DNA of 64,000 nt, taken from the NCBI RefSeq assembly GCF_003334765.1, contig NZ_QOWT01000005.1; one strand, written 5' to 3'. The notes under the pieces were generated by a model. The model did no database searches and was not told the origin of the DNA. It saw only the letters and a list, made by a program, of their open reading frames with translations. Numbering within the stretch: the first letter of the stretch is position 1; each line of letters begins with the position of its first letter. This DNA is from Escherichia coli (GTDB lineage: Bacteria; Pseudomonadota; Gammaproteobacteria; Enterobacterales; Enterobacteriaceae). This document shows positions 4,276-55,950 of the stretch, one piece after another. The position numbers and the translations under genes are program-made.

Positions 4276-4284
4276 AACTATTGG

Positions 4285-4308
4285 GTGCCGGAGAGCAATT
4301 TCCGGCAC
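4285..4308. terminator. Inverted repeat hairpin between convergent tsaD and ttdT
   Basis: gtgccgg-agagcaattt-ccggcac perfect 7-bp stem, 9 nt after tsaD stop and 10 nt before ttdT stop. Confidence 0.5.
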
Positions 4309-4317
4309 CGTCCTCAC

Positions 4318-5781
4318 TTAAAGCAACACCACGGGCATCCACAGTAAGCCGGTAATCACCAGCAATACGAGGAATATCAGCCCAAAAATCGCCCCCAGTC
4401 GCCAGTAATCCGCCGTTGGCAGATAACCACTGCCGTAGTAAATCGGACTGGGGCCGGTGGCGTATGGTGTAAGAATGCTCCCCAGACCAATTGCCGCACC
4501 AACCATCAGGCAGAACACCGGCAGCGGGATTTCCGGCATCGCCAGCGCAGCGGCAATCATCATCGGTGCGAGAGCGGAGGTATACGCCGTGGCGCTGGCG
4601 AAAAAGTAGCGCAGTAGATAAAACACCACAATCAACGCCACCATCACCATCGTTGGCGAATAACCGCTTAAGCTGCCTGCTAACAGTTTGCCAAACCAGC
4701 TAATAAAACCGGTGTTGTTGAGTCCGGTGGCGAGGGTGATAAGCGAGGCCAGCCAGAAGAAAACGTTCCACGCCGCTTTATTACTGACAATGTCGTCCCA
4801 ACTGATAATGCGCAGAAGCAGCATCAGTGCCACCACGCTGTAACCGACCATCGCGGCATCGATATAATCACCGCCGAAAATCCACAGCACCAGCGCGCCT
4901 ACCATCAGCCCCAGCATCCGTTTTTCACGCGAACAGAGCGGGCCCATTGCCTGCAGTTCCGTCTCTGCCCAGCGCGGCACCTGATCGCCAGACTTCAGTA
5001 CCGGCGGGTACAGCACGTAAGCCAGCCAGGGAACCAGCAGAACCAGTAAAATGCTGAGCGGCAACATCCCGAGGAACCAGTCGCCCCAACTCAGCGTGGC
5101 GTGAGATGCGCTTTTCATCAGTCCAATTAACAGCAAGTTTGGTGCCATCGCCGTCAAGAAAATGGCGCTGGTCACGCAGTCGGCAACAATCCCCATCCAC
5201 ATGATGTACGAGCCAATGCTGCGCGAACTGCTGTCGTTTGGTTGTGATTGATAGAGCGGTGGCAGGTTACGGATGATGGGATAGATAATCCCCGCACCAC
5301 GCGCCGAGTTGGACGGTGTTACAGGTGCGAGGATCAGCTCGGAGAACATCACCGCATAGCCGAGAAACAGCGTGCGATGTCCCATCTTTTTCACCAGAAT
5401 CAGCGCAATGCGGCGTCCAAGCCCGGTTTTTTCATAGCCTGTGCCAAACATAAAGGCGGCGAAAATCAGCCAGATAACCGAATTAGAAAAACCGGAAACG
5501 GCCCACGAGAGGGATTTTGCAGTGAATTTAAAGCCTGGCTGAGCGAGCTGCTCCGGGCTGAACAGCAGCCAGGGAGAGAGTATGGCGATGATGGATATAC
5601 CCACCATCGCCACCACGGCACCCGGCACGGGTTCGAGGATCAGTCCAACGATCACGCCAGTAAAAACGGCAAAGTAGAGCCAGGTATGGTTCTCCAGCCC
5701 TGCGGGAACCGGAAGTAGAGCAATAATGGCGATGACCGCCAGCGGCGCAAGATATCGCCACCATTCAGTGGAAGGTTTCAT
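4318..5781 (-). CDS. ttdT: L-tartrate/succinate antiporter (DASS/SLC13-type transporter)
   Basis: 487-aa polytopic membrane ORF immediately downstream of ttdAB on the same strand. Confidence 0.88.
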   Translation of the reverse strand: MKPSTEWWRYLAPLAVIAIIALLPVPAGLENHTWLYFAVFTGVIVGLILEPVPGAVVAMVGISIIAILSPWLLFSPEQLAQPGFKFTAKSLSWAVSGFSNSVIWLIFAAFMFGTGYEKTGLGRRIALILVKKMGHRTLFLGYAVMFSELILAPVTPSNSARGAGIIYPIIRNLPPLYQSQPNDSSSRSIGSYIMWMGIVADCVTSAIFLTAMAPNLLLIGLMKSASHATLSWGDWFLGMLPLSILLVLLVPWLAYVLYPPVLKSGDQVPRWAETELQAMGPLCSREKRMLGLMVGALVLWIFGGDYIDAAMVGYSVVALMLLLRIISWDDIVSNKAAWNVFFWLASLITLATGLNNTGFISWFGKLLAGSLSGYSPTMVMVALIVVFYLLRYFFASATAYTSALAPMMIAAALAMPEIPLPVFCLMVGAAIGLGSILTPYATGPSPIYYGSGYLPTADYWRLGAIFGLIFLVLLVITGLLWMPVVLL

Positions 5782-5828
5782 CGTGTTATGCCTGCGAAAA
5801 AGGAGAGGGGTGAGCCTCTCCGGGAGGG

Positions 5829-6434
5829 TTATTTGATGTAATGGACGTGCTCGCAGATCTCTTCCACGATGGGATCGCGGCGTTCGGCGAACAGCTTTTT
5901 GTTTTCGGCTATCAGGTTGTTGCCGTGGGTATCAATAGAGACAATCAGCGGGCCGAACTCTTTGACCCGGCAGACCCACAGTGACTCCGGCATTCCGAGC
6001 TCTGTCCAGTGCACTTCTTCAATCTCTTCCACCTGGGTTGCCGCCAGCACCGCGCAGCCTGCCGGGAAAATCACATGTAGCGCCTTGAATTTCTGGCAGC
6101 CTTCTTCGGTCAGCGGCCCCATACCACCTTTGCCAACCACCAGTTTCACGCCGGTCTGCTCAATAAATTCACGTTCAAAACTTTCCATACGCATACTGGT
6201 TGTCGGGCCGACGGAGACCATCTCCCATTTGTCGCCGTTTTTGCGCACGATGGGGCCAGCGTGGAAAATCGCTTTGCCGTTGAGATCGTAAGGGATCGGA
6301 CGTTTCAGTTCGATCAAACGGCGGTGACAAACGTCGCGGCAGGTCACCAGCGTACCGGTCAGGTAGATCACATCGCCGACGCGAATATCTTGCAGATCTT
6401 CAGCTTTGATCGGGGTTGTCAGGATCTTTTTCAT
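5829..6434 (-). CDS. ttdB: L(+)-tartrate dehydratase beta subunit (class I fumarase C-terminal-like)
   Basis: 201-aa ORF; start overlaps ttdA stop by 4 nt (translational coupling). Confidence 0.9.
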
Positions 6435-7342
6435 AACGCGCTCCGGGTGTGAGACAGATTTTCAAAGGTGAGATCGGCATGAACCAGCAGCGTGCCGCGA
6501 CGATGCGCCCAGCAGCCGGTAGAGACAGCAACGCCGATGGTTGACGGATGGCGGGCGGCAGATTCGATATGTACGCCCATCACTGAACTGTTGCCGGTCA
6601 GCCCTTGTGGACCAATCCCCAGACGGTTGAGTCCTTCTTCCAGGCGTAGCTCCAGTTCTGCCGCTTTTGGATTGGGATGGCGGCTGCCAATCGGGCGCAA
6701 AATGGCTTTACGCGAGAGTACGGCGGCGGTTTCCACCGAGGTGGCGATGCCCACGCCCACCAGTACCGGTGGACAGGCGTTTACGGCGAGGGTGGAGATA
6801 TTTTCGAAGACGAATTTCACCACGCCTTCGTAGCCTTCTGACGGCATTAACACTTTCGAGCGGCCAGGTAGCGTGCAGCCGCCGCCTGCCATGTAAACTT
6901 CGATTTCCGCATCGTCATTGTCGGGGATGATGTCCCAGGTGACCCACGGTACGCCGCTACCGGTATTTTTGCCGGTGTTTACTTCGTCAAAAATTTCTAC
7001 CGCATTGTGACGTAGTGGCGCTTTGACGGTTGCCTCTTCCACGGCTTGTTTGAGTATGCTTTGCAGCTCGCCAAGCAGTGGGAAGCGGGAACCGACTTTA
7101 ACGAAGAACATAATCTCCCCGGTGTCCTGACAGGCAGGACGATTCAGGTCAATCGCTTTTTGCATGTTGTCGAACATCGTATGGTAGATAATTTTCCCCA
7201 TCGACGACGTTTCGGCATCCTTTAGCTGTTTTAGTTTATCCACCACGTCATCAGGCATTCGGGTAGAAATCATGGCGGTAAAGTTAGCGACAATCTCTGT
7301 CAACTTATTCACTGCCTGTTGCTTATTACTTTCGCTCATCAT
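6431..7342 (-). CDS. ttdA: L(+)-tartrate dehydratase alpha subunit (Fe-S hydrolyase)
   Basis: ORF track frame 6431-7396; start set at ATG ATG ([14 protein letters not shown]...) at 7340-7342, giving 303 aa. Confidence 0.88.
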
Positions 7343-7548
7343 GGCAACTCCAGTTTTTGTATTTGTCTGGAAAAATTCACCGCCACAAACTACCACTAAA
7401 AATGTGGTTTTATATTTTTTGCCACCGTGAATATGTAATTAACAGTTCGTGAATCAACGCGAAAATAAGAATGAATATTGCGCCAGAGCAGGGAATGGCA
7501 ATGTTTTGCGAAATACACTGCGCTTATCACAACTGCGGATAATTAACG

Positions 7549-8481
7549 ATGCTGAATAGCTGGCCTTTAGCCAAAGACTTGCAGGTACTGGTAGAAATCG
7601 TTCACAGCGGGAGTTTTAGCGCCGCAGCGGCGACGCTTGGGCAGACGCCTGCATTTGTCACCAAGCGGATCCAAATCCTTGAAAATACGCTGGCAACAAC
7701 GCTGCTGAACCGCTCCGCTCGCGGCGTGGCGCTGACTGAAAGTGGCCAACGTTGTTACGAACATGCGTTGGAAATCCTCACCCAATATCAGCGACTGGTC
7801 GATGACGTCACGCAAATCAAAACGCGCCCGGAGGGGATGATTCGTATTGGTTGCAGTTTTGGTTTTGGGCGCAGCCATATTGCGCCAGCTATTACCGAAC
7901 TGATGCGCAATTATCCTGAGTTACAGGTGCATTTTGAATTGTTCGATCGGCAAATTGATTTAGTGCAGGATAATATTGATCTGGATATTCGTATTAATGA
8001 CGAAATTCCTGATTATTATATTGCGCATCTTTTGACAAAAAATAAAAGAATATTATGCGCAGCACCTGAGTATCTGCAAAAATATCCGCAGCCACAATCC
8101 CTACAGGAATTAAGTCGTCATGACTGTCTGGTGACCAAAGAGCGCGATATGACCCATGGAATATGGGAGTTGGGGAACGGTCAGGAGAAAAAATCGGTGA
8201 AGGTAAGCGGGCATCTTTCCTCCAATAGCGGCGAGATTGTGCTGCAATGGGCGCTGGAGGGCAAAGGGATTATGCTGCGTTCCGAGTGGGATGTGTTGCC
8301 GTTTCTGGAGAGTGGCAAACTGGTGCAAGTATTGCCAGAGTATGCACAAAGCGCCAATATCTGGGCTGTTTACCGGGAGCCGCTCTATCGCAGCATGAAA
8401 TTACGTGTCTGCGTGGAATTTCTGGCGGCATGGTGCCAGCAACGGCTGGGCAAGCCCGATGAAGGCTATCAGGTCATGTAG
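7549..8481 (+). CDS. ttdR: LysR-family transcriptional activator of the ttd operon
   Basis: 310-aa ORF with N-terminal HTH and LysR substrate-binding domain; divergent from ttdA. Confidence 0.88.
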
Positions 8482-8493
8482 ATCCACCAGAAA

Positions 8494-9111
8494 TCACTCG
8501 GGATCCTTTTCGCGCTTTCTTTTGAATTTCGTCCAGATTTTTGTCTCCTGACGACGCCACAGACGTTGGATGTTGTCATGATGACGCAGCAGGATCAGGC
8601 AAGAGAGCATCGAAACCGGGAAGGTGAATTGTGGCTTAAACCACCAGACATAAAACGGAGCAATCAGTGCACTGACAATCGCTCCCAGCGACGAGTATCC
8701 GCTCAATAGCACGGTCAGTAACCAGGTTCCCGCCATTACTCCGGTGAGATCCCAGCCAATGGGTGCGATGGCACCAAAAGCGGTAGCAACGCCTTTTCCT
8801 CCTTTAAATCCGAAGAAAACGGGCCAGATGTGTCCAAGACAGGCGGCGATGGCAATTAAGCCTAGCCAGAAGGGGCTGACACCTAATTCATACGCGCCCC
8901 AGACGGGCAACATTCCTTTCAGAACGTCGAAAATCAGTACTGCTACGGCTGCTCCCTTGCCACCGATACGTAACACATTGGTTGCGCCTGGATTGCCGGA
9001 GCCGCTGGTTCGCGGATCGGGCAGCCCACACAAGCGGCAAACCAGAATGGCACTGGAAATGGAGCCGCAGAGGTACGCGATGAGGATCATTCCAGGCGCG
9101 ATTGCACTCAT
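8494..9111 (-). CDS. plsY: Glycerol-3-phosphate acyltransferase PlsY (acyl-phosphate dependent)
   Basis: 205-aa membrane [27 protein letters not shown]... Confidence 0.9.
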
Positions 9112-10536: not shown

Positions 10537-10661
10537 GTAGGCCGAATAAGGCGTTCACGCCGCATCCGGCAATCAACGCCTGATGCGACGCTTGCGCGTC
10601 TTATCAGGCCTACAACTGTCGTTGACATGTAGCCGGATAAGGCGTTTACGCCGCATCCGGC
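10537..10661. repeat. REP/BIME cluster: three REP-like palindromic units (10537-10570, 10578-10613, 10629-10661)
   Basis: GCCGGATAAGGCGTTTACGCCGCATCCGGC-type REP sequences in alternating orientation, flanked by inverted copies of GTTGTCAACG, between convergent uppP and cca. Confidence 0.8.
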
Positions 10662-55846: not shown

Positions 55847-55950
55847 ACGTTCCTCCTTTATATGAACTCACCGGAGCAGGCTCCGGTGAGGTGTTGTGAA
55901 CTTAAGTCTGGACGAAATGCCCGAAAACGAAAGTTTGAGGCGTAAAAAGC

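Follow-up and report, generated by a model that had tools for sequence, protein, structure and literature searches.

The ttdR-ttdABT cluster as the chromosomal L-tartrate utilisation locus of Escherichia coli: gene junctions and a candidate TtdR recognition site

What does the compact cluster formed by ttdR and ttdABT do for Escherichia coli, and which features of its gene junctions and divergent control region would set its expression? We analysed the cluster within a 64,000-nucleotide stretch of an E. coli genome (the window; features in Table 1). The gene identities, diagnostic residues, junction geometry and the positions and conservation of motifs were established in the present analysis; the literature supplies the transport function, the activity of the enzyme, the activating role of TtdR and the DNA footprints. 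Our answer, to which we assign a probability of about 93%, is that ttdR-ttdABT serves as the chromosomal locus for L-tartrate utilisation in E. coli, a proposal that takes in tartrate exchange, dehydration, activation by TtdR and coupling of ttdA to ttdB. The locus, its enzyme, transporter and regulator, and the footprints of that regulator in the ttdA-ttdR spacer are already published and are textbook biology.

An earlier, sequence-only reading had named the four genes and placed ttdR divergent from ttdA-ttdB-ttdT. Both the names and the arrangement are correct as judged from open reading frame (ORF) positions, equivalog scores and the RefSeq annotation, and the gene coordinates, junctions and distances given there hold to the single base. 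That reading had staked itself on the translated ORFs aligning with TtdA, TtdB and TtdT; the encoded proteins are 100% identical to MG1655 b3060-b3063, and an annotation made from raw sequence alone thus proved accurate. The window is K-12-like, with one synonymous difference from MG1655 across 12 kb, and is oriented as its reverse complement. Compared with the K-12 locus there is no substantive difference: the flanking genes (tsaD and plsY), the spacing and the overlaps are all the same, with tsaD convergent with ttdT across a gap of 42 bp. The locus is present in every complete E. coli genome surveyed (5426/5426), and Salmonella enterica subsp. diarizonae carries an E. coli-type locus at the same tsaD-plsY site. 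No Rfam RNA family was matched within 4318-8481.

Table 1. Genes and sequence elements of the ttdR-ttdABT locus, in window coordinates.
Feature	Position	Strand	Remarks
Terminator-like hairpin closing ttdABT, in the tsaD/ttdT gap	4284-4309	-	9-bp stem, 7 G-C pairs, tail CAATAGTTTT
ttdT, L-tartrate/succinate antiporter (DASS family, exchanger clade)	4318-5781	-	487 aa; TIGR00785; RefSeq annotation of identical DNA
ttdB-ttdT spacer	5782-5828	-	47 bp
RNA hairpin in ttdB-ttdT spacer	5802-5821	-	terminator-like; conserved; followed by UUUUU in E. coli
ttdB, L(+)-tartrate dehydratase beta subunit	5829-6434	-	201 aa; NF006082 equivalog
ATGA overlap, ttdB start/ttdA stop	6431-6434	-	read directly; invariant in 18 species
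ttdA, L(+)-tartrate dehydratase alpha subunit, [4Fe-4S] hydro-lyase	6431-7342	-	303 aa; NF006084 equivalog
GGAG Shine-Dalgarno for ttdB, within ttdA 3' end	6441-6444	-	6 nt ahead of ATG; CCCGGAGCGCGTTATGA
Divergent control region ttdA/ttdR	7343-7548		206 bp, 38% G+C
GGAG Shine-Dalgarno for ttdA	7348-7351	-	block AACTCCAG at 7346-7353 kept in 18 species
Inverted repeat ACCAC-N7-GTGGT	7392-7408		putative element; conserved, adjoining conserved TTTATATT (candidate ttdA -10)
Dan/TtdR box GTTAATT	7437-7443	-	kept in 18/18 species; consensus from PMC2887951
ATT-N11-AAT dyad, including T7440-N11-A7452	7438-7454		homologous position in 18/18 species
Dan/TtdR box GTTGATT	7452-7458	-	exact match to PMC2887951 consensus
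TTATC-N9-GATAA dyad (ATC-N9-GAT LysR box type)	7524-7542		best dyad score; overlaps ttdR ribosome-binding region
Dan/TtdR box GTTAATT, just upstream of ttdR ATG	7541-7547	-	only E. coli and Escherichia sp. E1V33
ttdR (= ygiP, dan), LysR-type activator of ttdABT	7549-8481	+	310 aa; NF007315 equivalog; RefSeq annotation

The last gene of the operon had been read as encoding a DASS-family antiporter lying 47 bp beyond ttdB, and both family and distance stand: TtdT scores 562 bits against the TIGR00785 DASS model (cut-off 198.6; residues 24-482 covered). Among solved structures its closest relative is the exchanger LaINDY of Lactobacillus acidophilus (6wtw/6wu1), to which it aligns over its full length (1.8e-81 for 6wtw) with the SNSAR motif kept. 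In TtdT both former Na+ sites hold a basic residue, Arg161 (with Glu148) at one and Arg391 at the other. Arg161 and Glu148 correspond to Arg159 and Glu146 of LaINDY, so that both proteins have an arginine with a glutamate partner at the Na1 position, whereas the Na2-position His392 of LaINDY is replaced in TtdT by Arg391 (basic, not identical) and His401 by Tyr400. On these alignments TtdT is a DASS exchanger-type protein. It differs from LaINDY also in its substrate pair, L-tartrate and succinate, which it reportedly exchanges, and in the proposed pathway it would import L-tartrate in exchange for succinate.

The hairpin in the ttdB-ttdT spacer bears on whether ttdT is expressed strictly as part of the operon. 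It has a predicted folding energy of -12.3 kcal/mol (z = -2.5), and over 15 distinct sequences 96.7% of cells are paired, with two pairs showing compensatory changes; the hairpin that closes ttdABT is predicted at -20.7 kcal/mol (z = -3.1). Conservation of this kind, together with the U-run that follows the spacer hairpin in E. coli, is what would be expected if ttdT were partly uncoupled from ttdAB, the hairpin terminating or stabilising the ttdAB transcript while an internal promoter also serves ttdT, and an 'internal promoter' located between ttdB and ttdT appears in an RNA polymerase holoenzyme SELEX survey (PMC3946193). The stem is short, however, at 7-8 bp, the covariation depends on two lineages only, and most other species have a degraded CUCUUC or CCCUUU in place of the U-run. 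A scan of the minus strand upstream of ttdT found no promoter-like hexamers, and ttdA-ttdB-ygjE has been described as a single operon (PMC2887951, PMC3553945). We regard partial uncoupling as possible, at somewhat under even odds. Our own version, put forward tentatively and rather doubtful, is that the spacer is not passive: the hairpin would tune how much dehydratase is made relative to transporter, either by terminating some of the transcripts or by shielding the 3' end of a processed ttdAB mRNA, and an internal promoter would provide additional ttdT. A literature search for published 3'-end data on a terminator after ttdB returned nothing relevant; the intercistronic hairpin appears to have gone unexamined by others and is only a mildly new point.

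Within the operon, the start of ttdB had been read as overlapping the stop of ttdA in an ATGA, and this is exactly the geometry observed: the ttdB ATG occupies 6434-6432 and the ttdA TGA 6433-6431, with TG common to both. Four-base start/stop overlaps are commonplace; within this window qseB/qseC is another example. Together with the absence of any coupling experiment on ttdA-ttdB in a literature search, this frequency leaves room for the view that ATGA is mere compact packing without functional coupling, and independent initiation of ttdB is conceivable because a well-spaced GGAG precedes the gene. Nevertheless, 18 species share the entire GGAG-N6-ATGA junction without change although the final sense codons of ttdA are free to vary, and the two subunits form a 1:1 alpha2-beta2 complex (bioRxiv 10.1101/2023.06.17.545066). 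We therefore consider independent initiation unlikely. Translational coupling of ttdB to ttdA is a reasonable inference that fits the invariant GGAG and ATGA, short of proof, and such coupling would suit a 1:1 alpha:beta complex. With this overlap and internal Shine-Dalgarno, ribosomes finishing ttdA very probably go on to translate ttdB.

Transport by TtdT and control of the locus by TtdR, FNR and NarL have reportedly been described. Activation by TtdR is reportedly effector-dependent, responding to L- or meso-tartrate. The protein itself scores 605 bits against the NF007315 equivalog (cut-off 398; residues 1-299) and matches full-length LysR-family structures at 1e-33, and its gene is divergent from the target operon here and in 17 other species. 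TtdR, also known as YgiP or Dan, has been described as a positive regulator (PMC3553945), and both SELEX and DNase-I footprinting have been reported on the ttdA-ttdR spacer, the latter giving four footprints that share GTTNATT (PMC2887951). The sequence-only reading had measured this spacer at 206 bp, as it is, and expected a LysR-type binding site within it; that expectation agrees with the published footprints and with the three exact GTTNATT boxes found here, where 0.2-0.3 would be expected (P about 0.001-0.005).

A different account of these boxes would have TtdR act mainly as the nucleoid-associated protein Dan, coating AT-rich DNA under anoxia, with no discrete LysR operator in the spacer. 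Dan has been described as an abundant nucleoid protein of weak specificity, with 688 loci identified by SELEX (PMC2887951); its level rises 100-fold without oxygen, it forms filaments, and ladders of eight or more complexes appear on a 179-bp spacer probe (PMC2887951, PMC3553945). Yet the ttdA-ttdR spacer was by far the top SELEX clone (69 of 149 intergenic clones) and its footprints are discrete and 14 bp long (PMC2887951). One box and the dyad hold a fixed position in 18 species amid variable flanks, and TtdR, a full-length LysR equivalog, is encoded beside its target operon. The nucleoid and operator roles are in any case compatible rather than mutually exclusive, and we judge a purely coating role without an operator to be improbable. 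A discrete operator is the preferred reading, and TtdR binds the AT-rich GTTNATT boxes of the spacer.

Where might the primary site lie? The sequence-only reading saw no clear T-N11-A motif by eye, but T7440-N11-A7452 exists and is kept in 18/18 species. In the search of 7343-7548 for T-N11-A that it had proposed, counts of the bare motif are uninformative (17 observed against 18.5 +/- 3 in shuffles), while the longer ATT-N11-AAT dyad is conserved. This dyad is centred on 7446, the exact midpoint of the spacer, and overlaps two GTTNATT boxes. The box at 7452-7458 is exact only in E. coli, E. whittamii and Escherichia sp. E1V33; E. albertii and other genera lack an exact copy. The AAT half of this box is kept in all 18 species. 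Since a chance ATT-N11-AAT would be expected in about one in six spacers of like composition, by a rough estimate, the weight of the dyad comes from its conservation only; for T-N11-A as such, which is not above chance as a bare motif, support comes from conservation and from overlap with the published footprint boxes. On these grounds we infer that, of the candidates for a primary LysR-type site recognised by TtdR, ATT-N11-AAT is the strongest. It would form the conserved core of the region bound by TtdR, and from this position TtdR would activate ttdABT. The TTATC-N9-GATAA dyad was demoted to a secondary candidate: 30% of shuffles score as well, its ATC-N9-GAT is kept in just 7/18 species, and it also overlaps the ttdR ribosome-binding site.

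A consensus promoter scan of the spacer gave two matches, TTGCCA-16-AATATT on the minus strand and TTAACA-16-GAAAAT on the plus strand. Hexamer conservation between species is poor for both, and we leave them unassigned as promoters. A TATAAA at 7414-7409 (minus strand) is better conserved than these hits and is a candidate -10 element for ttdA. No FNR box (TTGAT-N4-ATCAA, up to 3 mismatches) was found in 7343-7548; a conserved block, TTGCGCCAGAGCAG at 7479-7492, departs from it by 4 mismatches and is not claimed as an FNR site. An FNR ChIP peak at the spacer has been seen only in an hns stpA double mutant (PMC3688515).

The remaining two genes encode the enzyme. TtdA is taken as 303 residues from the annotated ATGATG start, which the RefSeq annotation of identical DNA also uses; a mechanical ORF list extends it to a GTG at 7396 (321 aa). 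TtdA and TtdB score 575 and 397 bits against their equivalogs (cut-offs 365 and 264). With diagnostic positions taken from published work (bioRxiv 10.1101/2023.06.17.545066), TtdA has all three [4Fe-4S] cysteine ligands (C71, C190 and C277) and reads AGGGC at residues 152-156, the proximal loop specific to tartrate dehydratases (KGXGS in fumarases), and TtdB ends in K201. The best solved relative of both subunits is the two-subunit class I fumarate hydratase of Methanocaldococcus jannaschii (7xky_A, 7e-45; 7xky_B, 1.2e-47), which belongs to the same alpha/beta Fe-S hydro-lyase fold family and has the three cysteine ligands and active-site residues in common with TtdAB, but which differs in having KGXGS for AGGGC, in the beta C-terminal extension of TtdAB ending at K201, and in acting on the opposite substrate stereochemistry. 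That the enzyme is itself a class I fumarate hydratase, a confusion frequent in databases and encouraged by these structures, by matches to fumarase models and by active-site residues common to both families, is most improbable given that the fumarase equivalog models fall under their cut-offs (238 vs 276; 198 vs 269) where those of TtdA and TtdB are far exceeded, that the loop is AGGGC, and that published assays of the identical E. coli enzyme found R,R-tartrate and R-malate as its sole substrates (bioRxiv 10.1101/2023.06.17.545066).

The same study reports the alpha2-beta2 state and R,R-tartrate specificity of TtdAB, and records that the E. coli protein, identical to the one here, dehydrates R,R-tartrate to give oxaloacetate (bioRxiv 10.1101/2023.06.17.545066). 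In the pathway that we propose, TtdAB, an alpha2-beta2 [4Fe-4S] hydro-lyase that is oxygen-labile and akin to class I fumarases, would convert L-(R,R)-tartrate to oxaloacetate, which would be reduced by way of malate and fumarate to succinate, and the succinate would leave through TtdT. The ttdBAU-ttdVW cluster of Salmonella Typhimurium shares the dehydratase chemistry and the induction by L-tartrate without oxygen, but has a different gene order, uses TtdU as its transporter, and is controlled by two GntR-type repressors and ArcA in place of the single LysR activator in control of the E. coli genes (PMC11237755). To this known biology the present check makes a small addition, the invariance of a Shine-Dalgarno sequence plus ATGA at the ttdA-ttdB junction over 18 enterobacterial species, and the midpoint dyad ties the published GTTNATT boxes to the classical idea of a LysR box.

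All coordinates and distances given for the L-tartrate genes by the sequence-only reading agree with the ORF list and the raw sequence, including the 47 bp between ttdB and ttdT (5782-5828) and the 206 bp between ttdA and the divergent ttdR (7343-7548). The ORFs it had named TtdA, TtdB and TtdT do align as such in database searches: TtdA and TtdB match their NCBIfam equivalogs at 575 and 397 bits (cut-offs 365 and 264), as does TtdR at 605 (398), and for TtdT the DASS model scores 562 bits (198.6). The ttdR-ttdABT locus is an already known, well-characterised system. Relative to MG1655 near 3.20-3.21 Mb the window runs in reverse complement, with a single mismatch in 12,001 bases, at 4552 within ttdT (G here, A in K-12); the change is synonymous, since TtdT is 100% identical to that of MG1655. 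Every one of the 5426 complete E. coli genomes matches the locus DNA (4164 bp); in 5420 the match spans 80% or more of it, and in six no single place covers that much. One match lies on a plasmid, and in one genome, E. coli MSB1_1D, an ISVsa5 element (IS4-like) splits the locus.

Features of the L-tartrate locus and of the remainder of the window
Feature	Coordinates	Strand	Details
ttdT	4318-5781	-	487 aa; ORF list and raw sequence
ttdB	5829-6434	-	201 aa; ORF list and raw sequence
ttdA	6431-7342	-	303 aa; ORF list and raw sequence
ttdR	7549-8481	+	310 aa; ORF list and raw sequence
Hairpin GGAGAGG(C)...(G)CCUCUCC	5802-5821	-	UUUUU follows in E. coli
ttdA ribosome-binding site			Conserved block; spacer alignment
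TCTGGAAAAA	7366-7375		Conserved block; spacer alignment
AAACTACCAC...GGTTTTATATT	7387-7416		Conserved block; holds inverted repeat ACCAC-N7-GTGGT and candidate -10 TATAAA on ttdA strand
TTGCGCCAGAGCAG = TTG(C/A)GC-A--GCAG	7479-7492		Conserved block upstream of ttdR; spacer alignment
TACACT	7514-7519		Conserved block upstream of ttdR; spacer alignment
GTTNATT box	7437-7443	-	Exact; at homologous position in 18/18 species
GTTNATT box	7452-7458	-	Exact; restricted to some Escherichia species
GTTNATT box	7541-7547	-	Exact; restricted to some Escherichia species
naRNA4 (repeat-derived nucleoid-associated RNA)	10540-10610	+	Rfam match; between bacA and cca
Sib antitoxin RNA	18530-18679	+	Presumably SibE, by MG1655 position; ibs toxin gene on opposite strand
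Sib antitoxin RNA	18905-19054	+	Presumably SibD, by MG1655 position; ibs toxin gene on opposite strand
FMN riboswitch	27751-27899	+	Taken to be the ribB leader, by position
ES173 sRNA	55885-55948	-	Rfam match

The E. coli enzyme has been characterised as an alpha2-beta2 assembly specific for R,R-tartrate, with features that tell L-tartrate dehydratases apart from class I fumarases: alpha residues 152-156 form an AGGGC loop (KGXGS in fumarases), the cluster ligands are C71/C190/C277, and beta has a C-terminal extension ending at K201 (bioRxiv 10.1101/2023.06.17.545066). All are found in the window's TtdA and TtdB. The closest solved structures are those of the two-subunit fumarase 7xky, and no TtdAB structure was found in the PDB copy searched; for TtdR, full-length structures of the LysR family were matched. 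TtdT and the exchanger LaINDY can be aligned over their entire length (1.8e-81). Because TtdT retains the exchanger-specific arginine at the former Na1 site (Arg161, with Glu148) and has Arg391 at the position of LaINDY His392, its residues fit an antiporter, not a Na+ symporter.

We fetched 17 orthologous loci (Escherichia, Citrobacter, Salmonella enterica subsp. diarizonae, Trabulsiella, Intestinirhabdus and Entomohabitans), all 17 with identical gene order, and aligned their spacers with that of the window (18 species). The diarizonae locus is of the E. coli type and lies at the tsaD-plsY site, with proteins 91-96% identical, unlike S. Typhimurium, which is described with a ttdBAU-ttdVW cluster controlled by GntR-type repressors. 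In Citrobacter sp. R56 (fetched locus L020, 1100-1560) this interval retains only C-terminal ttdR (residues 171-308). The 5' half of ttdR is deleted together with the spacer and all three ttdABT genes, and what remains resembles a scar left by decay of the locus.

The sequence-only reading expected a LysR-type site in the ttdA-ttdR spacer and saw no clear T-N11-A by eye. A search of 7343-7548 returns 17 in 206 bp against 18.5 +/- 3 in shuffles; the bare motif is therefore uninformative, and its chance-level count accounts for its having been overlooked. A conserved dyad containing it does exist: ATT-N11-AAT at 7438-7454 (T7440-N11-A7452) occupies the homologous position in 18/18 species, and its centre (7446) is the spacer midpoint, 103-104 bp from either start codon. 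TtdR sites in the spacer are already published: according to Teramoto et al., the spacer is the commonest genomic-SELEX clone of YgiP/TtdR, which they renamed Dan, a 179-bp spacer probe forms at least eight complexes with the protein, and four DNase-I footprints have GTTNATT in common (PMC2887951). The spacer holds three exact GTTNATT boxes, all on the ttdA strand, where 0.2-0.3 would be expected (P about 0.001-0.005). Judged by its conservation and its overlap with the published consensus, the dyad is the best candidate for the primary TtdR recognition site.

Kim et al. are said to have found in 2009 that L- and meso-tartrate induce ttdABT via TtdR, that ttdABT requires fnr and that nitrate represses it via NarL and NarP. 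No FNR box was found in the spacer at up to 3 mismatches; the block at 7479-7492 has 4 mismatches to the consensus, and its spacing from TACACT would suit a -10 hexamer with a candidate activator site near -41. On the ttdA side, the inverted repeat adjoins the invariant TTTATATT (7392-7416), 50-75 bp upstream of the ttdA ATG, and together they may form a core promoter plus operator for nitrate or other control. In the ChIP data of Myers et al., FNR gives a peak at ttdR/ttdA only when hns and stpA are both mutated; in that double mutant ttdR is the most oxygen-repressed gene and ttdA is also strongly oxygen-repressed (PMC3688515).

The mechanical ORF list extends ttdA up to a GTG at 7396, and RefSeq starts it, on identical DNA, at the ATGATG at 7342. 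The first ATG is ATA, AAG or AGG in five species (loci L005, L009 and L014-L017 concerned), and E. albertii has a single ATG. Because the second (7339-7337) is present in every compared species, the true start may lie one codon downstream of the annotated one.

At the other end of ttdA the proposed ATGA overlap is borne out, with ttdB ATG (6434-6432) and ttdA TGA (6433-6431) sharing TG. The junction, CCCGGAGCGCGTTATGA, has GGAG 6 nt upstream of the ttdB ATG, and GGAG and ATGA are both invariant in 18/18 species. This arrangement fits termination-reinitiation and a 1:1 complex, and translational coupling is likely, although ttdB possesses its own Shine-Dalgarno sequence and four-base overlaps are common, for example qseB/qseC within the window. 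Our literature search found no experiment on ttdA-ttdB coupling.

The stops of ttdR and the convergent plsY are 12 bp apart (8479-8496; 32-61 bp in other genera). Since this gap contains no hairpin, ttdR transcripts should run into plsY as antisense.

The hairpin in the ttdB-ttdT spacer (-12.3 kcal/mol, z = -2.5) is conserved in 16 loci, with 96.7% of cells paired over 15 distinct sequences and compensatory changes at two pairs in separate lineages (G-C to A-U in Trabulsiella, A-U to G-C in two Citrobacter). It is terminator-like, with a U5 tail, only in Escherichia; because the U-run is not retained elsewhere, a conserved terminator role is doubtful. The RNA-polymerase SELEX table of Shimada et al. 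places an 'internal promoter' in the ttdB-ttdT interval (PMC3946193). This hairpin, on modest evidence, is the sole point that goes slightly beyond published knowledge of the locus, with a possible role in mRNA stability or ratio setting.
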